From a virus (taxonomy: Duplodnaviria > Caudoviricetes): a stretch of 34,209 bases of DNA. Location of the stretch: positions 1 to 34,209 of IMG/VR virus record IMGVR_UViG_3300025769_000422; one strand, written 5' to 3'. Each line of letters begins with the position of its first letter. The stretch's first letter is position 1. The position numbers and the translations under genes were made by a program. This document shows positions 17,111 to 33,706 of this stretch, in pieces. The notes beneath the pieces were generated by a model. The model ran no database searches. It was not told the DNA's origin and was given only the letters and a program-made list of their open reading frames with translations.

Positions 17111-18283
17111 ATGGGCAAGCAACGGCTGAGCCAGAGCGCGATAGCGCGGTATGGGCGTCAAAAGTTCGATGAGGCACAGAAGCAAGCGCGACGCGACTGG
17201 GAACGGTCAACGGTGGGTTCGGCAGTCCTGGACGTGGCGAGAATGGGGCGGAGCGTTCTGAGCCGGAGAACTCCTACCAGCAGAGCCAAGCGAGCGGTAA
17301 ACCGACTGAGCAAGTTTGCCACAAGCGGCGGAATGGGCGACGTCATTGCGAGTACCAAAGTCGGCAGCCAAGTGATGAAACTGGCGCGATTGGGCGACGT
17401 TGACAAGTACAGCAGCGGTCTCGTCGAGCAGATGGTAGGCAGCGTTCTATCGAGCATGTTTGGACCGCTAGGCGGAAGTCTCGCGCAGATCGTGTTTGCG
17501 AGCGACGACGCCGCGCAGGACGCGGGGCTCAATGATCCGGGTAGAGATCCAGGCGTAGAAGATTCGTTACGGGCGGCGCTTGAGTTCATCAACCTTGTCG
17601 ACCCGAAGCTATTGAGCGGGAAGGGCAAGGAAACGCTGACGGGCACACCGGAGGCGGCGGGACTACAGCGGGCACCGGATGACGGAACTTATCTTCAAGC
17701 ATCGCCAGTAATCAGAGGCCGGGAAGGGTTCTATGTCACCACGTACGAGGGCGGGCGGATGATGACATACCCGCGCACCGATCCGATGGTGACGGGTGAA
17801 ATGATTCCAGTGCAGAGCTCAAATGTCCATTCGATCGGATTTATTTACGACTTTGACAACACGCTGAACGGTGTTCTCAAGGTTCGATTCTTGCAGGGCA
17901 AGCGGTCAGACCGGAGACAGAAGATCGCCGGCCCGCTCTATTTCTACTACAACGTCGAACCGAAACTGTTCCGCGAGTTCCGCAAGGCAATCAGCGCGGG
18001 TGTCTTTGTCTGGGACAACTTGCGTGTGCGTGGTACAGTTTCAGGTCACCAGAAGCCATACGAGCTGAAGGGGGTCGCAGAGGGCTACGTCCCGAGAAAG
18101 GCGACTCGATACGGCGGAAACGAATACTATATTCAGCGGCAGATCAACGTCCGGCATACCCGGACGGGCAGCCGGCGTACGATTTCGAGCGAGAAGCCGG
18201 ACCGACTTGTCCAGCCATACCCGGACCGAGGAACGCCCGGACGCGGAGCACCGAACCGCGGGCGACCGAATCGAGGACGCTAA
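17111..18283 (+). CDS. KTSC-domain protein
   Basis: 'MIPVQSSNVHSIG...LKVRF...YFYYNVEPKLFREFRKAISAGVFVWDNLR' matches KTSC. C-terminal PxRG repeats. Confidence 0.75.
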   Translation: MGKQRLSQSAIARYGRQKFDEAQKQARRDWERSTVGSAVLDVARMGRSVLSRRTPTSRAKRAVNRLSKFATSGGMGDVIASTKVGSQVMKLARLGDVDKYSSGLVEQMVGSVLSSMFGPLGGSLAQIVFASDDAAQDAGLNDPGRDPGVEDSLRAALEFINLVDPKLLSGKGKETLTGTPEAAGLQRAPDDGTYLQASPVIRGREGFYVTTYEGGRMMTYPRTDPMVTGEMIPVQSSNVHSIGFIYDFDNTLNGVLKVRFLQGKRSDRRQKIAGPLYFYYNVEPKLFREFRKAISAGVFVWDNLRVRGTVSGHQKPYELKGVAEGYVPRKATRYGGNEYYIQRQINVRHTRTGSRRTISSEKPDRLVQPYPDRGTPGRGAPNRGRPNRGR

Positions 18284-18286
18284 TAC

Positions 18287-21200
18287 ATGCTGACCACGGA
18301 TGAGAAAAGCGAGTTGCACAACGAGTTCACCGCCCGAGCACAGGGCCGCAATCGTCCGCCGGAATTCATCCAGCGGGTGATCGACGAGAAGGAAGCCGGG
18401 ATCATGGACCCGGCGACCGAGTCACCCGGTGTTGCACCCAACTTCGGCCAGTACGCGCTGCCGCATCTGTTGACGTACCAGAGCCTGCACGGCACGTACA
18501 GTCGCGTCTACAAAGCCAGTGACGAGGCGATCAAGCACAGCATCGAGAACTCGCGATTCATGCGAAACGATGTTGGCATCATGGAGTGCGTAGAGGCACG
18601 GCAGCGGGCAACGGCGCTTCTGGACTGGCACATCGAGCCGGAGGACGACAACAGCCAGAGCCAGAAAGACCTATGCACCGAGCTGACGAAGATCATGAGC
18701 CGGATACGTCGCTTCACCGAGTATCGCAACAACCTTCTGCATGCCATCTGGTACGGCAAGTATGCGGTGCAGAACCGATACGGCTGGCAAAACATCGGCG
18801 GGGCGATGCGAGTGATGCCGACCCCGCTACGTGAGAACTACGGCTGGCAGCCGATCAACGGTGACAAGCTGGTATTTCGCTATGACGATGGCCAGCTGGA
18901 CCCGACTCGACCAATCCATCAGCTGGGGGTGCGTGTCGGACATCGGAAGCAGATCGGCACCAAAATCAACAAGCGGTGGGAAGTCGAGCCGACTGGGCAC
19001 GGGCTGGCTTACTTCCTTAGTGAGTACGAGCGACGTTCGTTGGTTGTTCACAAGCATCTAATCGAGGACGGAGCGTACGAGGATAACTGGGGCGGCGAGC
19101 AGATCCACGGCGTGGGTGTTCGGTCGCGCATCTACTGGGACTGGTTCCAGAAGCAGGAGACTTTATCGTTCCTGATGGAGTACCTCGAGCGATCCGCAGG
19201 CGGAATCGAGATTTGGAGCTATCCGGCCGGCGACAAGGGCGCACTGGAAGCGGCGAAAAGTGCAGCCACCGACCGAATCAGCAACCAGCGGAACGTCGTG
19301 TTCTTCCCGAAACCCATGGGCGACGAGGGCGCCATGTATGACGTGCAGGTGATCGAGCCAGGTATGTCGGGAATCGAGAGCCTGAAGGACATCGTGACCA
19401 ACTATTTCGGCCACCGAGCGAAGCGGTACATTCTCGGCCAGACGTTGAGCACAGAGGCGGATGCCACCGGGCTAGGCTCAGGCGTGGCGGAGCTCCACTA
19501 CAACTCCTTCTTGATGATCGTGAAATACGACGCGGTCAACCTCGAGGAGACGATTACGCGCGACCTGCTCCGACCGTTGCAGGAATGGAACTTTCCGAAG
19601 TCCAAAGGCATTGCTCTGCAATTCAAGATCGAGACCGAGTCTCCGGACGTGGAGAAGCGACTCGAGGCATATCAGGCGGCGTGGAGCATGGGCGCGAGTC
19701 TGAGCGAATCAGACGTCATGGACATGATCGGTGCGAGCGTGCCAACCGACAACGAAAGCGTGCTGAAGAATCCACAACTTGACCCGGAAGCACAGCAGGG
19801 AATGGACCCGATGGGCGGCATGGGCGGCGGAATGCCGGGCATGGCCCCCATGGGTGGAATCCCGCAGGACGGCGACGGTGACGGGATCGCAGGCGATGGA
19901 ACGTCACAAGCTACGGCTGTTGGCTTTAGTGGTGTCGACCAAATGAAAACGGACGCGATCGACAGCATGTATAACGACCCGGAAACGGCCGCGGGCGGCG
20001 ACGTGACGTACGTGAACGAAGGCGGCGAGTACCAGACTCGCGAGATGCCGGAGTTTGACACGGGTGACCGCAAGCCCGAGGGCAAGGTGGAGCGGTTCGA
20101 GCGGGATGGCGACGTCGACCTGTATCGACAGCAGATTGACAGCGCCGGGACGTCACTCAACCAGGTGCCTGCATTGTTCAAGCGAGTGCAGAAGGCCGGC
20201 GGATTCAAGCCGAACTCAATCAACCTGGACTATGGCGGCGGCAAGTACGACAAGGGAACCGAGTTCCTGAAACAGCTGGGCGTGAACAACCTGGTGCTAG
20301 ATCCCTTCAACCGATCAGGCGACCACAACCAGGCCGTTGTCGCAGCGATCAAGAAAGCCGGCGGCGCTCCGACTGCGACCATGGCGAACGTGCTGAACGT
20401 CATCGCCGAGCAGGAGGAACAGATCAAGGCACTCCAGAACGCCAAGTCGCTGCTGGCACCGGGCGGAATGCTGTATATCGACGTCCACGAGGGCGACGGC
20501 AGCGGCCAGGGCAAAGCGACGAGCCGCGGATTTCAGCAGAATGCGAAGCTCGACGCCTACCTGCCGATGGTGCAGAAGGTGTTCGGCCAGGCAGCGAAAG
20601 AGGGCGGTGTGATCGTGGCGACGACTCAGGCCCAGGGGAACGCTGCCTACAGCCGGATGGCCTACAACCTGGGCGAAGTCGAGCGATACGAAAAGCAACT
20701 GACGTTCGATTTCGGCAGCAAGGACGACGGCGAGTGGAAGACGATCAACGGCAGCCACGTGTACGTCGAGGGCGGCGAGATTACCAAAGGTCCGCCGGAT
20801 CTGTTGGGCAGGGGTGGCGACGGCCGGAAGGAGGACAGGCCGAAGCCGTTGGGAAAAAACCGACCCGGTGGGCGAAGCGAATTCAAGCCCGCCGGGGATT
20901 CACCGTCCGATGAGCTGCCAGCTGAGTTCGGCGCAATTGATTTGCCGATCCTCAACAACGCTCCGACAGGCGGCGATCCTCCAGAGGCCAGCACCGGGAA
21001 TGCGGTCAAGCTGCATCCGATCAAGTCCTACGACAAGGTTCTGGTCCAGTTCTCAGGCGGCAAGGACTCACTGGCGGCGGTGCTCGATCTGATCGACCGC
21101 GGAGTCGACCCGAAGAAAATCGAGCTCTGGCACCAGCGGATTGACGGCGACGGTGAGCGGTTCATGGACTGGCCAGTGACCGAAGACTACGTGCGAGCGA

Positions 21201-24200
21201 TCGCCGACCATCTGGGCGTCAAGCTCCGGATGCAGTGGCGTGAGGGCGGATTCAAGCGGGAGCTGGAGCGCCACAAGGAACGCACGCAAGGTGTGTGGTT
21301 CGAGGATGAGAACGGCAAGCGGAAGTTTCTGCCGACCACGAAAGGCGGCGAGACGACCCGCGAGAAGTGGCCCGCCAAGTCATGCGATCTGGGGAAACGG
21401 TGGTGCAGCGCTACGCTGAAGATCGACGTAGCGGCGCGGAGCATAACGAACGATCCGAGCCTGAAGGGCGACAAGCTGCTGTTCGTCAGCGGCGAGCGGC
21501 GCGAGGAAGGCGGCCGGCGGTCCAAGTACCTCGAGAGCGAGAAGCACCGGACCCACAACAAAAGCCGGACGAACCATCATTACAGACCCGTCCTGGATTG
21601 GTCCGAACAGCAAGTGTGGGACAAGATCAAAGAGCACGGGATCAACCCGCACCCAGCGTATCGCCTGGGCTACAACCGGCTGAGCTGTCAGCACTGCATC
21701 TTCGCCGACCCGGACCAGGTCGCGAGTAACCAGGAGCTAGACCCGAACGCGGTAGAGAAGCTGGCGGAGATGGAGGACAAGCTAGGCCACACCATCAGCG
21801 CCACCCCGAAGGGCGAAGGGGTCAGCATCCGCGACTGGGCGAAACAGGGCGTCAGTTTTGTCACTGACTCCCCGGACGAGCTCAAGAAGCTCGCGATGAG
21901 CACCGAGTTTACCGAGCCGATCCACGTCGGCGATGACTGGGAAATGCCGAAGGGGGCGATGAAAAAGGGCCAGGGAGCGCCCGCGAACTACGCGCGGATG
22001 GGCTACACCTGGGCGGACGTCGACCGTTATTGGCGATTTGACCGGATGGTCCGCGACTTGTACAGGGCGCAGTTCAACGAGGGCGATCATCCGCGGGACC
22101 AGGACGGCCAGTTCACGAGCGGAGCGGAGACCGCGCGTGCAATGGACGTCCCTGCGACTGAGCTCAATCGCGACGTTCACAGCCTGTTAAAAGGCACGGA
22201 GGGGTGGGTTCGTCCGGTTGAGCTCTTTCGCCAGTACAAAGGCAAGGCGAAGCTGTTGGACTTCATCAAGGAAGTGAAGACGGCCGCGTCCGAGGGCGAG
22301 GTAGAAACCAAGGGCAAGGGCGACAAGTTCCAGGTGCGCCGGATCGATACCGAGAGCAGCCTGATCAGTGACACGAATCGCCGGCTGGCAGGTCACAAGG
22401 TCGAGTACAACCCGCGGCAGATGACGTTGTTTCGGAAGCCAGGACGACCAGAGCCCTATCGACGGGTGAAGGATCGAAAAGGTCAGGGCACGTTCGACTG
22501 GAACGAGGAGGATCACCCCAGGGGGCAACCCGGCAACGCTGGCCAATTCGCCAGCAAGGAGGGCGGCGGGAGCGCGGAAGCCCCAGAAGCTCCAGAGGAG
22601 CGGAAGCCACAGGCAGAGGACAACTGGAGCGGTCCAGTTATTCAGTCGCCAGCGTTCAAGCAGTGGTTCGGCGACTGGGAGAACGACCCGCAGAACTCCT
22701 CAAAGGTAGTCGACGAGAACGGCGAGCCTGAGCAGCAGCACAGCATGGTGGTGGACGAGAACGGACAGCCGAAGAAAGCCTATCACGGCACGTCACACGG
22801 CGGATGGGACACATTCGAGCCACGTTTCGGACAGGCATCCGCAGGAGGGATTTCGGATCACCTGCTGTACGGGCCGGGGTTCTACTTCACAGAGGACAGG
22901 GGCATTGCCGAGGAATACACCCAGATTGCGAGAGAGCCTGAATACTCGCTCGCGATGGATGAGGACGCGGCCAACGCAAAGCTGCGCGATCGGGTGGAGG
23001 CAGTCGCAGAAGCATCCGACGATGAAATGCTGATCGAGGAGGCGGGCGACGTCATGCGGGACATTGATTCCGGGCGTTATGGCGTCCACAGGATGGTTGG
23101 CAAGAGCAAGAGCCAGCACGACTATTTTGCATCGACGTTCGGCATCGATGTCAGCGATCTGTTTGAGGAAAAGGACGATTCGGAGGTCAAGGAACTCTAT
23201 CTCAACATTCGGAAGCCGTTCGACGCTGACAATGACCGGATCCCGGCAAGCCCGGCAATGAGAGAAACGCTCGAGCGTTACATTCGCGAGTCAGAGGAAC
23301 AAGGGCATATGTCTGAGGCTAACGAATGGCGGGAGAAACTGAGGGAAGGGTACACGTATCAGGAAGCACTGGGTTTCAAGCCGACGAAAGAAGCCTTGAA
23401 CGAATACCTGAAGGAACTGGGCTACGACGGCATCACACACATCGGCGGGCGGCACATGGGGAGCCGTGACCATCAGGTCTGGATCGCGTTTCAGCCGAAC
23501 CAGATCAAGAGCACCGACAATCGCGGCACGTTCGATCCGAATGACAACCGGATGAACTACCGCAAGGTGAAGGATCGAAGAGGACAGCAGGCGTTCGACT
23601 GGGACGAGTCAGCACACCCCAGGGATGAAGACGGCAAGTTCGCCACGAGTGACAAGCCGAGTGACACGAAAAGCGCGAGTGACACGGAGATCGGCGGCAT
23701 TAAAAGCAGCGGAAGCGAACTTGGTGATGAGGCAACGATGGCCATCAGCGAGCTTTCGGAGGAAGCGGTATTGTCTGCCGTTCAGACCGACGGGTTCAAC
23801 GAAGCGGCGGTGCGTTCTGTGCAAGCACACACCAAGACGGTTGTTGGCCGGATGAATGCCGCGTGCAGGATGAAGATTGCCAACAACCTCGAGAGGATCA
23901 AATACGCGCCCGACCTGAACGAGTTGACCCGCCAATACAACTTTTTCAACCTTGCTAACCGTCGACTGGGATCGATCGGCGGATTCTATATGTTCGATGA
24001 GCAATGGCTGTTCCTGAACGGTGCGTTTGATGAGTACACCGAGTTCGGGAAGGGCGAAGCGAAAGACACAGCCGAAGGTATCCAGGCTCACGAGTTCGCG
24101 CATGCGATTGACGGCCCGAAGTCCGTCTACAGCAATATGGTCGAGTGGAAGACGGCATATCTTAGCGAAATCTGGGCGGCGAAGTCGCAGGATGCTCCGT

Positions 24201-24364
24201 TGACGCGATACGCCACAACAGACGCATCTGAAGGATTCGCCGAGTTCGGCCGATTGCTGTTTAGCGAAACGGAATACTTACAGGCTGCGGGGCGAGAAAC
24301 GATACGGGCGACCTTTCCGAAGTGCTACAAGTTCTGGCTAGACATGGGGCTTATCGATGACTGA
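18287..24364 (+). CDS. Portal (DUF935/Mu gp29-like) fused to SAM methyltransferase, PAPS-reductase-like, ADP-ribosyltransferase-like (ART-PolyVal type) and zincin metallopeptidase domains
   Basis: Portal ~18287-19790 (ILGQTLSTE..GLGSGVAELH); MTase ~20130-20620 (LDYGGG, DPFN, NVLNV); PAPS reductase ~21030-21960 (FSGGKDS, RWCS..LK, GERREE, RLSCQHC); ART ~22640-23555 (YHGT, GFYF, GYDG, QIKS); peptidase ~23740-24360 (HEFAH...YA...EGFAE). Confidence 0.88.
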   Translation: MLTTDEKSELHNEFTARAQGRNRPPEFIQRVIDEKEAGIMDPATESPGVAPNFGQYALPHLLTYQSLHGTYSRVYKASDEAIKHSIENSRFMRNDVGIMECVEARQRATALLDWHIEPEDDNSQSQKDLCTELTKIMSRIRRFTEYRNNLLHAIWYGKYAVQNRYGWQNIGGAMRVMPTPLRENYGWQPINGDKLVFRYDDGQLDPTRPIHQLGVRVGHRKQIGTKINKRWEVEPTGHGLAYFLSEYERRSLVVHKHLIEDGAYEDNWGGEQIHGVGVRSRIYWDWFQKQETLSFLMEYLERSAGGIEIWSYPAGDKGALEAAKSAATDRISNQRNVVFFPKPMGDEGAMYDVQVIEPGMSGIESLKDIVTNYFGHRAKRYILGQTLSTEADATGLGSGVAELHYNSFLMIVKYDAVNLEETITRDLLRPLQEWNFPKSKGIALQFKIETESPDVEKRLEAYQAAWSMGASLSESDVMDMIGASVPTDNESVLKNPQLDPEAQQGMDPMGGMGGGMPGMAPMGGIPQDGDGDGIAGDGTSQATAVGFSGVDQMKTDAIDSMYNDPETAAGGDVTYVNEGGEYQTREMPEFDTGDRKPEGKVERFERDGDVDLYRQQIDSAGTSLNQVPALFKRVQKAGGFKPNSINLDYGGGKYDKGTEFLKQLGVNNLVLDPFNRSGDHNQAVVAAIKKAGGAPTATMANVLNVIAEQEEQIKALQNAKSLLAPGGMLYIDVHEGDGSGQGKATSRGFQQNAKLDAYLPMVQKVFGQAAKEGGVIVATTQAQGNAAYSRMAYNLGEVERYEKQLTFDFGSKDDGEWKTINGSHVYVEGGEITKGPPDLLGRGGDGRKEDRPKPLGKNRPGGRSEFKPAGDSPSDELPAEFGAIDLPILNNAPTGGDPPEASTGNAVKLHPIKSYDKVLVQFSGGKDSLAAVLDLIDRGVDPKKIELWHQRIDGDGERFMDWPVTEDYVRAIADHLGVKLRMQWREGGFKRELERHKERTQGVWFEDENGKRKFLPTTKGGETTREKWPAKSCDLGKRWCSATLKIDVAARSITNDPSLKGDKLLFVSGERREEGGRRSKYLESEKHRTHNKSRTNHHYRPVLDWSEQQVWDKIKEHGINPHPAYRLGYNRLSCQHCIFADPDQVASNQELDPNAVEKLAEMEDKLGHTISATPKGEGVSIRDWAKQGVSFVTDSPDELKKLAMSTEFTEPIHVGDDWEMPKGAMKKGQGAPANYARMGYTWADVDRYWRFDRMVRDLYRAQFNEGDHPRDQDGQFTSGAETARAMDVPATELNRDVHSLLKGTEGWVRPVELFRQYKGKAKLLDFIKEVKTAASEGEVETKGKGDKFQVRRIDTESSLISDTNRRLAGHKVEYNPRQMTLFRKPGRPEPYRRVKDRKGQGTFDWNEEDHPRGQPGNAGQFASKEGGGSAEAPEAPEERKPQAEDNWSGPVIQSPAFKQWFGDWENDPQNSSKVVDENGEPEQQHSMVVDENGQPKKAYHGTSHGGWDTFEPRFGQASAGGISDHLLYGPGFYFTEDRGIAEEYTQIAREPEYSLAMDEDAANAKLRDRVEAVAEASDDEMLIEEAGDVMRDIDSGRYGVHRMVGKSKSQHDYFASTFGIDVSDLFEEKDDSEVKELYLNIRKPFDADNDRIPASPAMRETLERYIRESEEQGHMSEANEWREKLREGYTYQEALGFKPTKEALNEYLKELGYDGITHIGGRHMGSRDHQVWIAFQPNQIKSTDNRGTFDPNDNRMNYRKVKDRRGQQAFDWDESAHPRDEDGKFATSDKPSDTKSASDTEIGGIKSSGSELGDEATMAISELSEEAVLSAVQTDGFNEAAVRSVQAHTKTVVGRMNAACRMKIANNLERIKYAPDLNELTRQYNFFNLANRRLGSIGGFYMFDEQWLFLNGAFDEYTEFGKGEAKDTAEGIQAHEFAHAIDGPKSVYSNMVEWKTAYLSEIWAAKSQDAPLTRYATTDASEGFAEFGRLLFSETEYLQAAGRETIRATFPKCYKFWLDMGLIDD

Positions 24365-25412
24365 CAGGCAACTGATACCAGAGCTGTTCGGCGAGAGTAT
24401 CAATACGGACGGCAGCCACGCGGATGTACTGTTAGGTCAGGGCGAGGAAGAGGAACCGCACGCATCAAATACGCAGGCCGGCGGTCTGTACGGCGACGTT
24501 CTGCTCACACCAGACGAGCGTGAGAAGTACGCGCGGCAGATATCACTGTTCAACGAGGAAGACCATCCGCGCGACGATTCCGGGAGATTTACCAGCGGCG
24601 GAGGCCGATCGAAGTCAGCGAAGCCGGTCAAGCCGTTCCACCCATTGAAGGGCGAAGGCGGGAAGCTGCACCCGAAGCGGAAACCGAACAAGGAAGCGTC
24701 TGAATACCACGGAGTCGAAAAGCTGAACTCTCCCGGGAATCTGCCGGCGGTGTTCCTGACTGGGGTGAGCAACAAGAAGACACGCGAGGCGGCGAAGGAT
24801 AGGCCGGGGCTGGGCGTCCTGATCACCCCGAATACTGGGCAGTACGTGAACCACGTGAACGATTACAGCGCGTTCGCAGTGGACAACGGTTGTTACTCCG
24901 AGCACACCGGCAAATGCGAATTTAAGCCGGCGGAGTTCCGGAAGCTGCTGAAGGATCTGAAGCCGGAAGCACACAAGGCGATGTTTGTGACTGCTCCGGA
25001 TGTTGTGGGCGACTGGGAAGCGACGAGGAAACGGAGCGAGCCGTGGCTGGGTGAGATTCGCGAGGCGGGTTTTCCGGTAGCCTGGGTGGCTCAGAACGGC
25101 ATCGAGAACAACCAAGGCGAAATTCCCTGGGACGATTTCGACGTCCTGTTCATCGGCGGAAGCACCGAATGGAAGCGGGGTTTCGATTCCAAGGGCGGCA
25201 CGAACTCCGAGTTCGTCAAGATGCTCAAGGAAGCACACAAGCGAAAGAAACCGGTACACTTTGGTCGCATCAACAGCTGGAAATCGCTCGACACGGTGGG
25301 CTACGGCCTGGGAGCCTCGAGCGTGGACGGGACGTATCTGGCATTCGGCCCAGAGAAGAACCTACCGAAGCTGCTCGATTGGGTGGATAGCGAGACCGCA
25401 ACGCGATACTAG
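24357..25412 (+). CDS. tRNA-guanine transglycosylase (TGT/DpdA)-like TIM-barrel protein with N-terminal HPR tag
   Basis: 'AVDNGCY', 'PDVVGDWEAT', 'VAQNG', 'FIGGSTEWK', 'HFGRIN' and 'SVDGT' follow the TGT-superfamily motif order. Confidence 0.6.
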   Translation: MTDRQLIPELFGESINTDGSHADVLLGQGEEEEPHASNTQAGGLYGDVLLTPDEREKYARQISLFNEEDHPRDDSGRFTSGGGRSKSAKPVKPFHPLKGEGGKLHPKRKPNKEASEYHGVEKLNSPGNLPAVFLTGVSNKKTREAAKDRPGLGVLITPNTGQYVNHVNDYSAFAVDNGCYSEHTGKCEFKPAEFRKLLKDLKPEAHKAMFVTAPDVVGDWEATRKRSEPWLGEIREAGFPVAWVAQNGIENNQGEIPWDDFDVLFIGGSTEWKRGFDSKGGTNSEFVKMLKEAHKRKKPVHFGRINSWKSLDTVGYGLGASSVDGTYLAFGPEKNLPKLLDWVDSETATRY

Positions 25413-25420
25413 GGCGAAGA

Positions 25421-28400
25421 ATGAACATTCAGCAGATCAACGAAGCGGTTGAACGTGCGGTCTACGAAAAGGTCCACGGGTGGAGTGAGGACGACCATCC
25501 GCGTGCCGATGACGGCAAGTTCACCAGCGGCAGCGGTTCGGTCGAGGGCGGCCAGGCAGAGCCCAAGAATCCGAAGTTCGTCGACCCGGGGCAGTTTGCC
25601 ACGTTCGAGGAATACACCGACTTCCTGTCCGACAAGCTGGGGCGCTCGATATTCGGTGTGTCTGGCGGCAACCGGGCGAAGCTGATGGACAACTGGCACA
25701 AGGCCCAGGCTGAGAAACGCGGCGACGATTACGAGTTGCCGGACTGGATCGCAGACATGTCGGAGAATCATTCCGCCGGCGACGTCAGCGACTGGGCAAA
25801 GGACATGATAGCGAACCGCGGATTCGACGAGACCGAAGTGCGCGGAGCACTCGAGGAATCGAGCGACCTGAAAGTTGATCCAACCAAGCACGACGACCTA
25901 TACAGCCTGGGCCATTACATCGAATCGCTCGACGATGAGGACGAGCGGCCGGTTCAGCGGGAGCTATTCGGCCGTTACCGATCGCTCGAGCACGCCACCC
26001 AGAGCGCCAACCCTGCGCTGCGACTGATGGCAGCGAAGCAGATGCGGTACAGCCTGGTCCATTCAGGCGGACACTGGCGGGATCTGGACCGACTCGATGG
26101 AATCATTGAGGAAGCGGTCGACCACGGGCGTAGAATGGCAACACTGGCCAACAGCGAAGCCGGCCAGGCTGTGCTTGACCACTACCTGGACGAAGCTGTC
26201 GCAGTGATGCACCAGCTGGAGCCAGAGCGGGAGATGTACCGCAAGGTTAAGAGCCGACCAGGCCAGAAAAGCCTGTTCGATGAGGACACTGTCGAACGCC
26301 ATCCAGCCGGCAGCCCCGAGGGCGGCCGATTCGCTCCCAAGGGCAGCGGCAAGAAGGGGAAGAAAGATGCGAAGTCGAGCAGCAAAAAGCGAGTGGGGAA
26401 GAAGACTCGAAAACCACGTACGCGAAAACTTCCCGACGGAGTGGGCGAAGATGAGCGAGGATCAGCGCAACGACTTTTTGACTGGGGTAGTGACTCAGGC
26501 GGAGAACGACGTGGTGCTGATGATTCGGCAGGGGATGCTGCCAGCAGAGGCGAGGGCACAGGCACGGGCGGAGATGTTCCCGAGACCGGAAGAAAGCGAC
26601 GACGAAACACTCTGAACGTCATGAGCTCCACCGATTGGAGCTACAAAGACAACTCCTTCGTTGAGGGCGGCAAGAAGGCCAAGTTTCAGCACAATATCGA
26701 AGCGATCAAGGTTCTGAACCAGATCGAAGCCGAGGGACGCGACCGCGCGACCGTCGATGAGCAGGAAGTGCTGTCTAAGTTCAACGGCTGGGGCCAGTAC
26801 CCGCAGGTATTCGACCCATACCCGCGGCCAGAGTGGAAGGCCGAAGCGGAGCAACTCGAGAGCCTTCTGGGTGAAGCACAATTCAAGCAGGAAGCGAGAG
26901 AGTCCCGCGACAACCGCAAGAGCGCCGGCCGCGCTACGCTCAACAGCCACTTCACCGACCCAGCCGTGGTCGATGCGCACTGGAAAGCTGCCCAGCGGCT
27001 GGGTTTCAAAGGCGGTCGATTCCTCGAGCCGTCCATCGGATCGGGCCACTATGTCGGCCTGATGCCGGAAGAGCTCCGCAAGAATACGGCTGTGACTGGC
27101 GTAGAGCTGGACACGACAACGGCCCGCGTTGCTTCGATGCTGTACCCGTCGGTCAACATTCAGAATCAAGGTTTCGAGAAGTTCAGCGCGCCGGACGGGT
27201 TCTACGATCTGGCTGCTTCCAACGTCCCGTTCGGTGACTACCGACTGAGCGAGCGACGTTACAACCGTCTGCGCCCGTACATCCACGACCACTTCTTTCT
27301 GAAGACGATCGACAAGGTGAAGCCGGGCGGTCTGGTGATGCACGTGACCAGCACGGGCACGATGGACAAGAAGAACGACAAGATCCGCAAGAACATGGCG
27401 AAAAATGCGGATCTAGTCGGCGCCTTTCGGATGCCATCAGGGGCGCACGGGCAATCGGCCGGGACCGCTGTTGTGACCGACATGCTGATCTTCAGGAAGC
27501 GGGACGAACACGGGGCAGCACCGGAGCACAACCCGAAGGAGGTTCTGGACCAGCTGAAACCGGGTTTCACGGGAGTCCTGACCGACAGTCTGGGGCGGGT
27601 GTACCACTTCGTTGACGGTAAGCGGGTTCCGGCTGACTACTGGACCGAGATAGGATCAGTTCCCGACCCAGAGGGCGGCGAAGACATTCCAGTCAACAAA
27701 TACTTCCAGCACAACCCGGACCAGATCCTTGGCCAGATCGGATGGACAGGAACGCTCTACGGCGGTCACGAGATGGGCGTGCAGTCGACTGGTGACCTGA
27801 CCGAGATGCTAGACGCTGCGATCAACCGGTTGCCAGAGAACATCATGAGCGACCGCCAGCCGGAAAATCTGGACGCATACGAACCAGAGGCGCAGCCAGG
27901 TGCAGAAGATGAGCGGGACGGGAACCTCGTAGTCGATGGCGATGAGGTGTTTCAGAAGGTGGGCAACATTCGCGTCAAGGTGGATCTGAACGCAAAGCAG
28001 GCGGCGATCATCAAAGACGCCGCGGACGTCCGTTCTGGCGTGCGTGACCTGATGCGAGCCGACTTGGCTGGCGAAGACGCGGACGAGATGCGGCAAAAGC
28101 TGAGCGTCTCGTACGACATGTTTGTGGACACTCACGGCCCGTTGCACAGTCCGGCCAACTTGCGAGCGATGGCTCAAGATCCAGACCTGCCTGTAATGCT
28201 GGCGCTCGAGGATTGGGACGCGAAGACAAAGACGGCCACCAAGGCGGAGATTTTCGAGAAGCCGACGGTTCGGCCGCACGTGGAGCCGACCACCGCGGAC
28301 AATGTGATTGATGCGTACGGGATCAGTCTCGCACAGCGGGGCAACATCGACCCTGACTACATGGCACAACTGACAGGGCTACGTCTGGAGGATGTCGAGG

Positions 28401-31400
28401 ACGAGATGCGCAAGTCCGGACTGGCGTTTGAAGATCCTTCGGACGGCTGGACCGAACGCGGGTCGTACTTGTCTGGAGACGTTAAGGACAAGCTGGCGAT
28501 TGCTCGAGCAGCGGCAGAAGCCGACGAGCGATACAAGGTGAACGTGGAAGCACTCGAAGCGGTTCAGCCGAAGGACATCGCATACGACGACATCGGCGTG
28601 AGAATGGGGAGCCCGTGGATTCCACCGAGCGACGTTGAGCAGTGGCTCAGCGACACAATTGGCGGACGTCCGGACGTGTTCAAGATCGAGTACAGTCCAG
28701 AGCTGGGCCAGTGGTCTGTCGACATGGCTCGAGGTGAGGCCAACGCATGGTTGCCGCATGACCACAAGCTGGAGGTGGGTGGCTTCAAGTGGAAGCGAGT
28801 AGTTGACGCGGCGCTGAACTCGAAGACGCTGACGGTGTGGGGTGAGGACAGCAAAGGGAACCGATACGTTGACGTCGACGCGACCGATGCGGCCCGCGAA
28901 AAGGTGGCGGAGGTAAAAGAGCAGTTTGCCGAATGGGTCTGGGAAGACTCCGACCGCCGCGAACGACTCGCGCGAGCGTACAACGACGAGTACAACAACA
29001 CGGTCCCGGCCAACTATGACGGCAGCTATCTCGACTTCCCAGGGATGACTCCAGCGTGGAATCTTCGCGAACCGCAGGCCAACTTCGTCGCACAGGTGAT
29101 CAGCCGGGGTAAAGGGTTTTTGGCTCACGAGGTGGGAATCGGCAAGACGGCGGCGATGGTCGCGAGTGCGATGGAGCTGCGCCGGCTGAGGCTGGCAAAC
29201 AAGCCGGCAATCGTGGTCCCGAAAGCCACACTCGATCAGATGGAGCTCGACGCACGGGAGCTCTACCCGGGTGCGAAGATCCTCAGCACGAGCGGCAAGT
29301 TCGGTGCGACGGAACGTAAAGAGTGGATCAGCAAGATGGCGACCGGCGACTGGGACATGGTCATTATGAGCCACGAGCAGATGAAGTATCTGCCGATGGA
29401 GCGTGATACCGAAGCCAGGTTCTTGCAACAGGAGCTCGACGACCTCGACAGTGCGATGGAGTTCCGCAGGGCGCAGGACGGCAAGGGGATGCGTTCCGAC
29501 ACGCGGCAGGTCAAGGCCATGGAAAAGGCCCGAATGAAACTCGAGGCCCGAATCAAGGACGTCACAGAGGGCAAGCGGGACGACGCCTTGACGTTCGAGC
29601 AGAGCGGCATTGACCAGCTGTTCGTCGATGAAGCGCACGCATTCAAAAACCTGCAAGTCAACACAAGTCTGAAGGGGACCAAGGGCATCCCGACCGCGGC
29701 CAGTCAGCGGGCGCTTGACATGTATATGAAGACGCAGTGGATGCTGGACAACCACGACAACCGCGGAGTGGTGTTTGCGTCTGGTACACCGATCAGCAAT
29801 ACAATGGCTGAGGTCTACAACATCCAGCGGTACCTGCAACCGGACGAGCTCGAGAAGCGTGGCTTGAAACACTTCGACAGCTGGGCGAAGGCATTCGGCG
29901 ACAGCGAGACCACGACCGAGCCGAATCTAGCGGGCGAGTACAAAGACGTTACGCGGTTCACCAAGTTCCAGAACGTACCAGAGCTGATGCAGATGCTACA
30001 GCAGGATCTGGACGTGCGGACGGTCGACGCCTTCAACGAATACAAGCGCGGCGGTGACCCCGACGTAGCCGACGCGATCAAGCGACCGAAGCGGATCGAC
30101 TCGGTCTACGTCCAGCCGGCAAACGACACGACGCAGGCGGTGATGGACGAGATCGCCCTGCGGGCTCGCAACATTCCGAAGCGGCCGGGCAAGGGTGACG
30201 ACAACATGGTCAGCCTCACGACGCTCGCGCGGCAGGCTGCTGTTGATCCACGTCTGTACGACCCGAATGCCGAGGACCGTCCAGATTCCAAAGTCAACAC
30301 GATGGTGGCGAACGTGCTGGCCACATACCACAACCCGGAGAAAGCCGGCAAGACACAGCTGATCTTCTCCGACATCGGGGTAAACCCGTCCAATTCAACC
30401 GGGTTCCACCTGTACGGAGACATCATCGACAAGCTGGTGGCTGGTGGCATTCCGCGCGAGGAGATCGCCGACTATAGCAAGTTGACCGACCTGCAAAAAA
30501 AGACGGTCAGCGCGGAGCTGAAGTCTGGCAAGCGCCGCATCGGCATCGGTTCGTCCAAGAAGCTGGGCACAGGAACCAACGTGCAGACGCATCTGGCGGA
30601 GATGCACAACTTAGACGTTCCGTACGTTCCGACCGAGAACACGCAGCGAGACGGCCGCGGCTACCGTCAGGGCAATCTGAACGACGAGGTGAAGATCTGG
30701 CGGTACGTGTCGGAAGGGTCCGCGGATGAAATCAGCTGGGGCATCGTGGGCCGGAAGCAGGGGTTCATCAACCAGACAGTCACTGACAAAGGTTCGGATT
30801 TACAGCGGGAAGTAACTGAGGAAGACGCCGAGTCGTTCACACCGCAGCAGTTGCAAGCGGCCGCGGCTGGAGACACTCGGATCTTGGATCAGGTGACCTA
30901 TAGCCGAAACCTCAAGAAGTTGGAGCGATCAAAGAAACGTCACACGCGAGAGCAGAGGGAGCTGGTTGCTGGTGTCGCAAAAGCACGAGAGCAGGCGGAG
31001 GTACTCAAATCGGAAGCCACCCGGATGGCTGACGACCATGCGGCTGGCGAAGCTCGAGCGGAGCAAAAGTTGCGGATTGAGGGTGCGGCGACTGATGCGA
31101 AAGCGGCCGACCAGCAGAAGCAGATGGACGCGCTACGCGACAAGGCAGATGAGATCTGGGCATCGATTCCCACGTATCGCCGAACGATTCCGCGGTACGC
31201 TGAGTCGGCGCGGATAAGGGTGGGCGAAGTCCGCGGTATGCCTCTGTACCGATTTGCAGGCAACTTCTACCTCGAGGGCGCGAGCGGTCAGCATTACACC
31301 ACGGGTGAGACGACGCGGTCCGTTGACTACGTGGCCCGCAACCTTGGGAAGCGTGCGGACGACAAACGCCAGCAGGCGAAGATGCACGAGGAATCCGCAG

Positions 31401-33706
31401 CTTCGATGCAGTCGAGAGTTGGGGAGCCATTCAAGAAGCAAGCAGAGCTGGACGAGACGCAGAGGAAGCTGGACGCTGTGACCGAATCGCTCAAGACTGC
31501 GCCGCAGTCAACGCAGAAAGCGGAGGAGCGTTTCAAAAACGACTACCGCCGCGCCGCTCACGCTGCCGTGGCGAAGTATCTCAGAGCCGGCCAGGTTCAG
31601 CGGTATGAGTGGATTACGATTGGATCGGACAAAGGGGCACCAGAAGGGGAAAAGGGCGGCACACCTGTATTTGTGGGCCGTGGGGGGCAGATTGAAAAGG
31701 GGCCCGACAATCTCGAGGGGCAGAACATCAGTCAGGTCGACCAGAACAAGGAGGAAGGCGAGCACACCGAGAAGCAGCGCCGTCAGGATCTGAAGACGAT
31801 CGGCGACGTTCGGAAGACATTCCCGCGCGGGACGATGGTTGAGAGCCTTGACGGCGGACTCAAAGGGCAGGTGACCGGGATCAGTTTCGGCACAGGGTCC
31901 GGAACGCTCACAGTCACTGACGAAGACGGCCAGAAGCACAAGGTTTCACCGTCAGAGATGATGCGACAGGACGAGCCGAATCCCCTGGACATGAAAGAGG
32001 CGGACCAGCTGCCGGCATCCACCCAGGAAGGACTGACGAAGACGCGGGACGATGCCATTGAAGCGGCCGATAAGGCCAGGCAGAAGCTCCACGACGTCTA
32101 CAACGATCCGAACAGCACGCCAGCAGCCAAGCGGAAAGCCAGCGCCGAGCTTGAGAAGGCGGAGCAGCTGGTAGGTCAGGCTCACGGGGCTCTCGACAAC
32201 TTCAAACATCGCGCGAAGGGTGTCACAGAGCCACCGTTTACGAATGCGAAAGGCGAAGTCATTCCAGACCCGCCGGACTGGTTCAAACGCGGACGCGCCA
32301 ACGCACGGTGGGCGCCGGACCGAACCAAGAAGCAGGCGTACCTGTTCGATAAGTGGGAAGACCCGACGCCAGAGAACGCGCCACCGCCGCCGATTGATCA
32401 GGTGCCAGGCGCAGAGAAGCCGATTGAGCGACTCCAGAAGGGCCAATTCAGCGAATACACTGGGCTGACGCTGATGGACATCGACGACATCAAAGCGGAC
32501 CCAGGGCGTTTTCAGTACAAGGTGTCCGGTATCGGCAGCGGGGGCGTATCGCAGAAGCTGAAGGACGCGGAAGTTTTTAACCCCATGCTGATGGGCTCGT
32601 TTCTGGTGTGGCACGATCCGGAGGATGGAGAGACGTACGTCGTGAACGGCCACCATCGTCACGAGCTTGCACAGAGAGCGGACCGAGCCGAAGGTTTCAA
32701 CGGTCTGGTCCCGGCGTACTACGTGGACGCTCCAGACGCCACAACGGCCCGTGCTATGGGAGCTCTCGCGAACATCGCCGACGAGAACGGAACAGCAACG
32801 GACGCTGCCAAGTTCATCCGCGACACTGGAAGCACACCGGAAGACATGCGGCAGCTGGGCGTGAGTCTCAAGGGCCGCATTGCACAGCCGGCACAGGCGC
32901 TCAGCCAGGTTTCGGACACGATGTTCCACCAGCTAACCAGCGGGTTGATGAAGGAATCACGAGCGCTGGCCATTGCGAACAACCTACAGGACCACGAAAA
33001 GCAGAACCAACTGGTAAGACGCATCGACAAGGCCGAGAATGAGGGCAAAACGCTGTCGGATGCTGTCGTAGCTGAGATGGCTCGCCAGTATGATGCAGCT
33101 GGCGAGAAGCGAAGCGACGGCGGAGGTGGCGGTCTGTTCGGTGACGACGATTTCAAAGAATCACTGATCGTCGAGCGGTCTGAGTTGATCAGTGGCGTCC
33201 GACAGGCTTTGAACGGCATGCGGACGGCGCTTGCTCGAGCAAGTACCAAGAAAGCCGCGGAGCGTCTCGAGTCTGTCGGTGGTAACATTGTCGACACGGA
33301 AGCCAACAAGGCCCGCAAGGCGGAACTGGACCGTCTGGTGGAGGATTTCAACAGCACGGTAAACTACCGCGGTACAGGACTGTCGGAGCTATTCAATGAC
33401 TACGCCCAGCGACTCGCAGACAACCCAAAAGCCGGAAACCAACTCCGAAAAGAGCTCATCGAACGAATCGCCGGAGGCGGTCAACTGGGAGGCGGTCAAT
33501 CAGGGGCTGTCCAACCTTCAGGGGCAGGGGCTGGTGGGCAGAACTCCGGACGGCAAGCGCAACGACCTATTAGTGTCGCAAGCCCTGCACAGCAGCAACA
33601 GTTCGCAAGGGACGTCAGCCGGCTGATGCGGTACGGCATGGGCTACACAGCGGCCGCAAATGTGGCCAGAGGCTACCAACTGAATCGCTTCGGGGAGCGG
33701 AATTGA
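25421..33706 (+). CDS. DarB-like polyvalent protein: N6-adenine DNA methyltransferase + SNF2/SF2 helicase + SH3/KOW-like + ParB-like domains
   Basis: MTase LEPSIGSG and NVPFG; helicase HEVGIGKT, DEAH, SGTPISN, GTGTNVQ and QRDGRGYRQGN; ParB-like 'DPGRFQYK...YVVNGHHR'. Confidence 0.9.
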   Translation: MNIQQINEAVERAVYEKVHGWSEDDHPRADDGKFTSGSGSVEGGQAEPKNPKFVDPGQFATFEEYTDFLSDKLGRSIFGVSGGNRAKLMDNWHKAQAEKRGDDYELPDWIADMSENHSAGDVSDWAKDMIANRGFDETEVRGALEESSDLKVDPTKHDDLYSLGHYIESLDDEDERPVQRELFGRYRSLEHATQSANPALRLMAAKQMRYSLVHSGGHWRDLDRLDGIIEEAVDHGRRMATLANSEAGQAVLDHYLDEAVAVMHQLEPEREMYRKVKSRPGQKSLFDEDTVERHPAGSPEGGRFAPKGSGKKGKKDAKSSSKKRVGKKTRKPRTRKLPDGVGEDERGSAQRLFDWGSDSGGERRGADDSAGDAASRGEGTGTGGDVPETGRKRRRNTLNVMSSTDWSYKDNSFVEGGKKAKFQHNIEAIKVLNQIEAEGRDRATVDEQEVLSKFNGWGQYPQVFDPYPRPEWKAEAEQLESLLGEAQFKQEARESRDNRKSAGRATLNSHFTDPAVVDAHWKAAQRLGFKGGRFLEPSIGSGHYVGLMPEELRKNTAVTGVELDTTTARVASMLYPSVNIQNQGFEKFSAPDGFYDLAASNVPFGDYRLSERRYNRLRPYIHDHFFLKTIDKVKPGGLVMHVTSTGTMDKKNDKIRKNMAKNADLVGAFRMPSGAHGQSAGTAVVTDMLIFRKRDEHGAAPEHNPKEVLDQLKPGFTGVLTDSLGRVYHFVDGKRVPADYWTEIGSVPDPEGGEDIPVNKYFQHNPDQILGQIGWTGTLYGGHEMGVQSTGDLTEMLDAAINRLPENIMSDRQPENLDAYEPEAQPGAEDERDGNLVVDGDEVFQKVGNIRVKVDLNAKQAAIIKDAADVRSGVRDLMRADLAGEDADEMRQKLSVSYDMFVDTHGPLHSPANLRAMAQDPDLPVMLALEDWDAKTKTATKAEIFEKPTVRPHVEPTTADNVIDAYGISLAQRGNIDPDYMAQLTGLRLEDVEDEMRKSGLAFEDPSDGWTERGSYLSGDVKDKLAIARAAAEADERYKVNVEALEAVQPKDIAYDDIGVRMGSPWIPPSDVEQWLSDTIGGRPDVFKIEYSPELGQWSVDMARGEANAWLPHDHKLEVGGFKWKRVVDAALNSKTLTVWGEDSKGNRYVDVDATDAAREKVAEVKEQFAEWVWEDSDRRERLARAYNDEYNNTVPANYDGSYLDFPGMTPAWNLREPQANFVAQVISRGKGFLAHEVGIGKTAAMVASAMELRRLRLANKPAIVVPKATLDQMELDARELYPGAKILSTSGKFGATERKEWISKMATGDWDMVIMSHEQMKYLPMERDTEARFLQQELDDLDSAMEFRRAQDGKGMRSDTRQVKAMEKARMKLEARIKDVTEGKRDDALTFEQSGIDQLFVDEAHAFKNLQVNTSLKGTKGIPTAASQRALDMYMKTQWMLDNHDNRGVVFASGTPISNTMAEVYNIQRYLQPDELEKRGLKHFDSWAKAFGDSETTTEPNLAGEYKDVTRFTKFQNVPELMQMLQQDLDVRTVDAFNEYKRGGDPDVADAIKRPKRIDSVYVQPANDTTQAVMDEIALRARNIPKRPGKGDDNMVSLTTLARQAAVDPRLYDPNAEDRPDSKVNTMVANVLATYHNPEKAGKTQLIFSDIGVNPSNSTGFHLYGDIIDKLVAGGIPREEIADYSKLTDLQKKTVSAELKSGKRRIGIGSSKKLGTGTNVQTHLAEMHNLDVPYVPTENTQRDGRGYRQGNLNDEVKIWRYVSEGSADEISWGIVGRKQGFINQTVTDKGSDLQREVTEEDAESFTPQQLQAAAAGDTRILDQVTYSRNLKKLERSKKRHTREQRELVAGVAKAREQAEVLKSEATRMADDHAAGEARAEQKLRIEGAATDAKAADQQKQMDALRDKADEIWASIPTYRRTIPRYAESARIRVGEVRGMPLYRFAGNFYLEGASGQHYTTGETTRSVDYVARNLGKRADDKRQQAKMHEESAASMQSRVGEPFKKQAELDETQRKLDAVTESLKTAPQSTQKAEERFKNDYRRAAHAAVAKYLRAGQVQRYEWITIGSDKGAPEGEKGGTPVFVGRGGQIEKGPDNLEGQNISQVDQNKEEGEHTEKQRRQDLKTIGDVRKTFPRGTMVESLDGGLKGQVTGISFGTGSGTLTVTDEDGQKHKVSPSEMMRQDEPNPLDMKEADQLPASTQEGLTKTRDDAIEAADKARQKLHDVYNDPNSTPAAKRKASAELEKAEQLVGQAHGALDNFKHRAKGVTEPPFTNAKGEVIPDPPDWFKRGRANARWAPDRTKKQAYLFDKWEDPTPENAPPPPIDQVPGAEKPIERLQKGQFSEYTGLTLMDIDDIKADPGRFQYKVSGIGSGGVSQKLKDAEVFNPMLMGSFLVWHDPEDGETYVVNGHHRHELAQRADRAEGFNGLVPAYYVDAPDATTARAMGALANIADENGTATDAAKFIRDTGSTPEDMRQLGVSLKGRIAQPAQALSQVSDTMFHQLTSGLMKESRALAIANNLQDHEKQNQLVRRIDKAENEGKTLSDAVVAEMARQYDAAGEKRSDGGGGGLFGDDDFKESLIVERSELISGVRQALNGMRTALARASTKKAAERLESVGGNIVDTEANKARKAELDRLVEDFNSTVNYRGTGLSELFNDYAQRLADNPKAGNQLRKELIERIAGGGQLGGGQSGAVQPSGAGAGGQNSGRQAQRPISVASPAQQQQFARDVSRLMRYGMGYTAAANVARGYQLNRFGERN
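26367..26615 (+). CDS. Candidate nested (overprinted) TnpV-like helical protein, 82 aa
   Basis: Purine-rich AGGGGAAG precedes ATG26367. The alternative frame reads WGRRLENHVRENFPTEWAKMS...FL..V..QAE...IRQGM..AEARAQARAEMF, while the main frame there is low-complexity. Confidence 0.55.
   Translation: MRSRAAKSEWGRRLENHVRENFPTEWAKMSEDQRNDFLTGVVTQAENDVVLMIRQGMLPAEARAQARAEMFPRPEESDDETL

Follow-up and report, generated by a model that had tools for sequence, protein, structure and literature searches.

The window, by which we mean the whole stretch of DNA analysed, is an entire virus record of 34,209 nt, linear and ~45% complete, that encodes a terminase, a 2025-aa polyvalent protein fused to the portal, and a giant protein of 2761 aa (P0002) whose gene occupies 25421..33706 on the + strand, as do the parts of it described below. 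The sole match among species genomes, a Gemmataceae MAG at 50% identity, gives a weak hint to the host. The giant is a DarB-like polyvalent protein (PHROG 10089, DarB-like antirestriction, E 3e-126) with the fusion of an adenine methyltransferase to an SNF2 helicase that marks a DarB-like dyad (PF00176 above its cut-off). Its parts include a helical domain at aa ~418-502 (26672..26926, assigned to LPD36 by position and a GWG motif, not by a profile), an adenine methyltransferase domain (26951..27505, bounds approximate) with the motifs FLEPSIGSG and NVPF, the latter being the NPP(Y/F)-type motif at aa 601-604, and the first lobe of an SNF2-type helicase at aa 1214-1490 (29060..29890; Pfam ResIII/SNF2). 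This order of helical domain, adenine methyltransferase and SNF2 helicase is also that of the methylase-helicase dyad (Iyer 2017). As described in PMC5512222, phage P1 packages its DarB, which protects DNA in cis; because of this precedent, and because the portal and terminase genes adjoin it, we infer that the giant may be packaged in the virion and shield DNA from restriction.

The neighboring genes also carry features of note. The protein encoded at 18287-24364 joins the portal to two domains, one methyltransferase-like and one PAPS-reductase-like, and to two ART-PolyVal stretches, and Q-x-x-L/F-F and HPR...G-x-F motifs are common to this gene, the gene that starts at 24357 and the giant. 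The latter neighbor (24357-25412, 351 aa) matches PHROG 15826 and, weakly, queuine tRNA-ribosyltransferase (E 0.004), so its product is possibly a deazaguanine DNA-modification enzyme, while a 390-aa gene between terminase and portal (17111-18283) has a weak match to the KTSC domain.

A small gene in the linker of the giant

Within the giant's gene, in its +1 frame and on the same strand, lies an ORF of 82 codons (P0001; 26367..26615) that starts with the ATG at 26367, stops with the TGA at 26613-26615 and encodes a product of pI 5.0 with four predicted helices. A preliminary description, made from the letters alone, gave this ATG, stop and product correctly, and it was also right that the main frame is here a K/R/G/D low-complexity linker, as residues 310-400 of the giant (26348..26620), which cover the small gene, include G17/R13/K12/D9/S8 (n=91). 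The purine-rich ribosome-binding site proposed there is a Shine-Dalgarno-like (SD) AGGGG (26355..26359, + strand) 7 nt 5' of the ATG, a site of moderate strength whose anti-SD pairing is -6.2 kcal/mol, compared with 0.2 for the upstream in-frame ATG at 26280 and 0.4 for the main-frame ATG at 26621. Two other starts were rejected, that at 26280 since it has no SD and homology begins further downstream, and that at 26451 (SD -6.9) since it would lose the conserved helix 1. The statement that the ORF stops just before the methyltransferase domain holds with regard to the helical domain in front of the methyltransferase: the stop lies immediately 5' of that domain, but the Rossmann core starts ~400 nt further on. 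As a search for sigma-70-like promoters in 25400-26700 found none (0.1 expected), we assume that the small gene is translated from the mRNA of the giant.

The length of this ORF alone is at chance level, with a stop-free run of 135 codons compared with other +1 runs of 114, 106 and 103 and one +2 run of 153 in the giant's gene, so the case for the small gene rests on homology and selection. Positions 26101-26800 are identical in four more assemblies (L046-L049), from samples that are possibly shared.

The single sequence yielded few relatives. Matches of P0001 to Pfam and PHROG were at noise level, a word-index search found no homolog, and locus searches with the single protein returned nothing. 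A phmmer search of 1.84 billion proteins gave 20 matches, one of them a true relative (P0013, 39% identical); the remaining 19 were discarded as long multi-stretch proteins, of which P0003, chosen for a closer look, proved to be a repeat protein. With Foldseek there was no match at E<=0.001 in BFVD or the PDB, the family profile described below found nothing meaningful among PDB sequences, and the ESM Atlas provided leads only (0.84 at best, with a TnpV-11% cluster scoring 0.76).

Homologs at related loci and selection on two frames

A profile was built from 36 hand-picked +1-frame segments at the same position in other genomes, with the window's genome left out, and 125 loci with related methylases, four of them from the window's own genome, were fetched. 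P0001 scores 45.2 bits on this profile, compared with 5.2 for the next best of 379 six-frame segments of the window and 11.3 for the best of 1000 shuffled sequences; the HMM search proposed earlier for the product succeeds with the family profile, although it gave no meaningful Pfam or PHROG match for the single sequence.

A survey of the 115 loci with >=450 nt upstream (the window's own genome and 6 short loci were dropped) found a profile match in 105, and in 69 of the 79 loci outside the seed set. The homolog is nested in the +1 frame just 5' of the enzyme core in 89 of the 115; in 13 it is free-standing, immediately 3' of the giant's stop, and 3 are irregular, two of them (L060 and L086) looking frameshifted and the third (L121) having its homolog further upstream. 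The profile search detected no homolog in the other 10, of which 5 end at or inside the giant. Clustering at 70% methylase identity leaves 47 clusters, window included: 35 with nested copies, 5 with free copies, 6 with none and 1 irregular. With relocated copies counted, the small gene adjoins the enzyme in 102 of the 115 loci. The free copies (for example L007:13931-14269, L008:12903-13271, L012:13183-13536, L020:13162-13533 and L044:12938-13306) represent 5 lineages that form one clade in a quick, midpoint-rooted methylase tree (SH-aLRT 100). The position of this clade among nested copies suggests that in this lineage the gene moved from inside the giant to a place of its own, and since the free copies are directly behind the giant's stop, the small gene keeps to the enzyme even when it is not nested. 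At two irregular loci, L060:1400-1865 and L086:469-964, there are apparent single frameshifts within the small gene, and that in L086 joins its start to the methylase.

Sequence comparisons indicate that both frames are kept open and are under selection. Among 67 representative nested copies, which take in the window's genome but neither the 3 irregular loci nor any locus with fewer than 250 enzyme codons, there are no main-frame stops over the small gene, compared with 142 expected under synonymous re-coding, which would leave ~15 of the 67 open by chance. In the 13 free copies, which come from 5 lineages and were not dereplicated, the equivalent frame has 93 stops, compared with 103 expected. 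The frame-specific conservation that the preliminary description had proposed as a check is also found, as in 28 disjoint DNA-aligned pairs, mostly actinobacterial-plasmid-like and compared over a region delimited by the hidden-frame profile, the hidden frame has 73% amino-acid identity, ahead of the main (64%) and third (63%) frames. Hidden-frame identity exceeds that of the main frame in 26 of these pairs, equals it in 1 and is below it in 1, and nucleotide identity is lower at the hidden third codon position (0.75 versus 0.83). Pairing at SD-like sites has a median of -6.3 kcal/mol over 60 rows (leaving out 9 loci that offer no candidate start, counting the window twice and including L121) compared with -3.0 in 541 control windows, the best candidate being taken on both sides, which points to a ribosome-binding site and start that are the small gene's own. 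In a strain contig (X11, depth 5), 7 changes are listed, of which 5 are nonsynonymous when read in the hidden frame and 4 when read in the main one; stops are absent, but there is no sign of tighter constraint on the small gene in X11.

The profile, the positions found in the survey and the selection on two frames lend good support to the earlier claim of a dual-coded gene that travels with the methyltransferase-helicase. The term 'overprinted', on the other hand, is probably the wrong way round: because the small gene's frame is the more constrained one and has free-standing kin, the giant's linker is probably a loose, permissive overlay on the small gene.

Annotated records illustrate how easily such a gene escapes notice. 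Each of the 5 cultured phages checked, among them Agrobacterium phage Atu_ph08 and Vibrio phage VvAW1, has the hidden ORF in the methylase's +1 frame, and it is unannotated in 4 of the 5 records; in the fifth, PBC5, it is the tail of a separate upstream CDS. A search with one family member retrieved 54 plasmid records, of which three were opened. Two of these have a 'TnpV protein' directly 5' of a 'helicase-related protein' (RefSeq labels) and start the helicase downstream of TnpV although the helicase frame is open across it, while in the third only the helicase is called. These records expose an annotation blind spot, as the nested gene is mostly missed in phages and plasmids. We found no description of the nested gene in the open-access papers covered, supplements apart, and TnpV, DUF1896, Ulx and 'overlap' are all absent from the main text of PMC5512222.

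Several irregularities of annotation and sequence were seen at the same loci. In the PBC5 record (L129:1-5461) the annotation splits the giant into two CDS. The first has the small-gene domain as its end, and the intervening methylase stretch carries no annotation, a pattern that resembles a frameshift. The called proteins of four close homologs of the giant (P0026, P0028, P0029 and P0031) start ~30 residues into the enzyme core, and such calls may reflect gene callers dodging the overlap. Loci with a short N-terminus (for example L066, L073, L088, L097 and L103) have a Q-x-x-L/F peptide, such as QLSF or QDALF, in the main frame just 5' of the small gene. This pattern, which was picked post hoc, occurs in 23 of 27 short-extension loci, compared with 1 of 31 loci with long extensions and 9 of 1134 control windows. 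The peptide resembles a sliding-clamp-binding motif and may be the reason that the main frame must read through.

A second SD-led ORF in the +1 frame (33396-33626, + strand, 76 aa, SD -5.8 kcal/mol) overlies the giant's C-terminal G/Q/S linker, 3' of a ParB-like domain. Among other loci with a ParB-like domain, a +1 segment at the giant's C-terminus was not seen in L007, L008/L059, L043 or L044, and L034/L054 and L060 have short helical-looking +1 segments that bear no clear likeness.

Fold and kinship with TnpV and DUF1896

AlphaFold2, given an alignment of 46 rows, confidently predicts a fold of four helices (residues 9-21, 23-28, 31-54 and 59-70; pLDDT 88). The family is acidic, with a median pI of 4.7 and a pI <6 in 35 of 46 members.

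By sequence, P0001 is a distant relative of TnpV and DUF1896 that falls below Pfam cut-offs. TnpV (PF14198) is matched by 15 of the 46 family members at E<=0.05 (best 2.3e-5) and DUF1896 (PF08989) weakly by 3 of the 46 at the same threshold, while P0001 itself has no TnpV match. None of the 14 relatives that were re-scored reaches the 27-bit gathering cut-off of PF14198 (14.6-24.8 bits), and at ~17 bits the relatives also stay below the 25-bit cut-off of DUF1896. In the other direction, RefSeq TnpV proteins score 52-58 bits on a family profile that gives P0001 57.5, so remote homology to TnpV is reached through intermediates. The resemblance to TnpV proposed in the preliminary description thus holds as distant kinship of the family and not as a match of P0001 itself.

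The top structural match, 2APL (PG0816), which we take to be a DUF1896 protein, has a Z of 7.6 (rmsd 2.5 Å, 70 residues aligned; next match Z 5.6), a value under the tool's guide of ~13 for helical bundles; it ranks 18th with Foldseek (E 7) and has 149 residues compared with 82 in P0001. Three of the 46 members match the PHROG 938 'endolysin' profile, which is probably a mixed one.

In the available part of PMC10782964, TnpV is listed as being of function unknown and its nesting is not mentioned. PMC9815147 describes IMEs and CIMEs of Streptococcus suis that are inserted in the snf2 gene of ICEs and encode TnpV, an association of TnpV with SNF2 genes.

A proposed brake on the enzyme and other readings

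DarB-type methylase-helicases are among the commonest domains in polyvalent proteins of phages and conjugative elements, and we know of no account of how they are controlled. A conserved partner hidden in the linker offers a direct handle on this control, may account for trouble in expressing enzymes of this type, and leads us to propose a job for TnpV and DUF1896, two widespread families of unknown function.

The reading that we prefer, and to which we give a little less than an even chance, is that P0001 is a separately translated brake that keeps the enzyme quiet until it is delivered to a new host. The small gene would be translated from its own ribosome site on the giant's late mRNA, and the shared message would supply small protein and giant one to one. 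The acidic four-helix product would then bind the methylase-side core and hold the enzyme inactive in the producing cell, and this brake would be released once the giant has entered a new host. An ATP-driven methylase would need restraint if produced in bulk late in infection, a need that an acidic partner from the same message could fit. Since the family occurs in phages and plasmids, with both virion-delivered and plasmid-borne versions of the enzyme, its partner is more likely to be the enzyme than the capsid.

Co-folding with the methyltransferase-helicase, another check proposed at the outset, gave 0.51 for P0001 with residues 401-1300 of the giant, compared with 0.00 for the best of 3 controls. 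Runs agree in at least 74% of contacts, the partner pLDDT is at least 78, and the prediction gives no interface. This pass is rated weak because passes at or below 0.60 comprise only 18 of 157 solved complexes, together with the sole 2 of 215 mismatches that passed at all. Binding to the methylase-side core is therefore weakly predicted, and while this weakly supports the small regulator or inhibitor suggested in the preliminary description, the role itself is what we infer. A profile search of 231 segments from the surroundings of phage P1 darB found no homolog, so this type of enzyme can manage without the family. A wider form of the proposal seems rather unlikely to us as it stands, namely that TnpV/DUF1896-like proteins are dedicated inhibitors of delivered DarB-type enzymes, that nesting in the linker makes the gene inseparable from the enzyme, that leaving the brake behind switches the enzyme on, and that parasites with a lone TnpV control the enzyme of their helper.

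The same linkage to the enzyme and the same weak co-folding would also be expected of a positive partner, be it a chaperone for folding or delivery or a subunit packaged with the enzyme and needed for anti-restriction, a possibility that we take seriously while giving it a smaller chance than the brake. The arrangement of a nested partner is known from traH in traI, of which P0001 may be a variant: RP4 TraH, according to the accessible part of PMC7314908, is acidic, encoded in another frame inside traI and acts with TraI, so in both cases a large DNA enzyme has a small acidic protein encoded within its gene in a different reading frame. The traH/traI pair differs in being a relaxase system, and TraH stabilises the relaxosome and does not inhibit, which speaks for a positive role (PMC7314908). 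P1 provides a second precedent, as a small gene adjoins the large one there too, and the free copies occupy the place of ulx, directly after darB; Ulx is described, in the available parts of PMC12810830 and PMC11437467, as a virion protein of the Dar system that is incorporated after DarB. Ulx, however, is not nested and lacks detectable homology to P0001, and P0001 was rejected as a Ulx homolog (hhalign probability 0.8%; profile search negative). The presence of the family on plasmids, which have no capsid, makes a capsid-specific role unlikely and leaves that of a general chaperone.

If P0001 is not a brake, it might also act elsewhere, on a host factor, on DNA or on the enzyme of another element, and merely be co-expressed with the giant, which we consider improbable. 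TnpV genes ride small mobilisable elements, in S. suis those inserted in the snf2 gene of ICEs (PMC9815147, in the part available), so TnpV can exist without an intact enzyme in cis, and the weakness of the co-folding support also fits such a role; against it, 102 of 115 loci have the small gene next to the enzyme, even where it has relocated.

A role in cis, in which translation of the hidden frame tunes or restarts that of the methylase-helicase part as a separate gene, is very unlikely, even though the stop of the small gene is mostly <=60 nt from the start of the enzyme core, a main-frame ATG follows it by 5 nt in the window, and several close homologs are called from within the core. Coupled restart of the methylase was rejected as a general rule, since a main-frame start near the stop exists in only 3 of the 67 nested copies and none overlaps the stop; the Met is absent in a relative with 71% identity (P0025), the main frame is held open, the small protein is conserved in sequence and fold, and the free copies are downstream of the enzyme. 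Finally, an ORF of ordinary length, whose sequence by itself gave no meaningful Pfam or PHROG match and retrieved no homolog by word index, could be due to chance or faulty assembly, but this is scarcely credible given the profile match, frame-specific conservation, free-standing homologs and identical stretch in four more assemblies.
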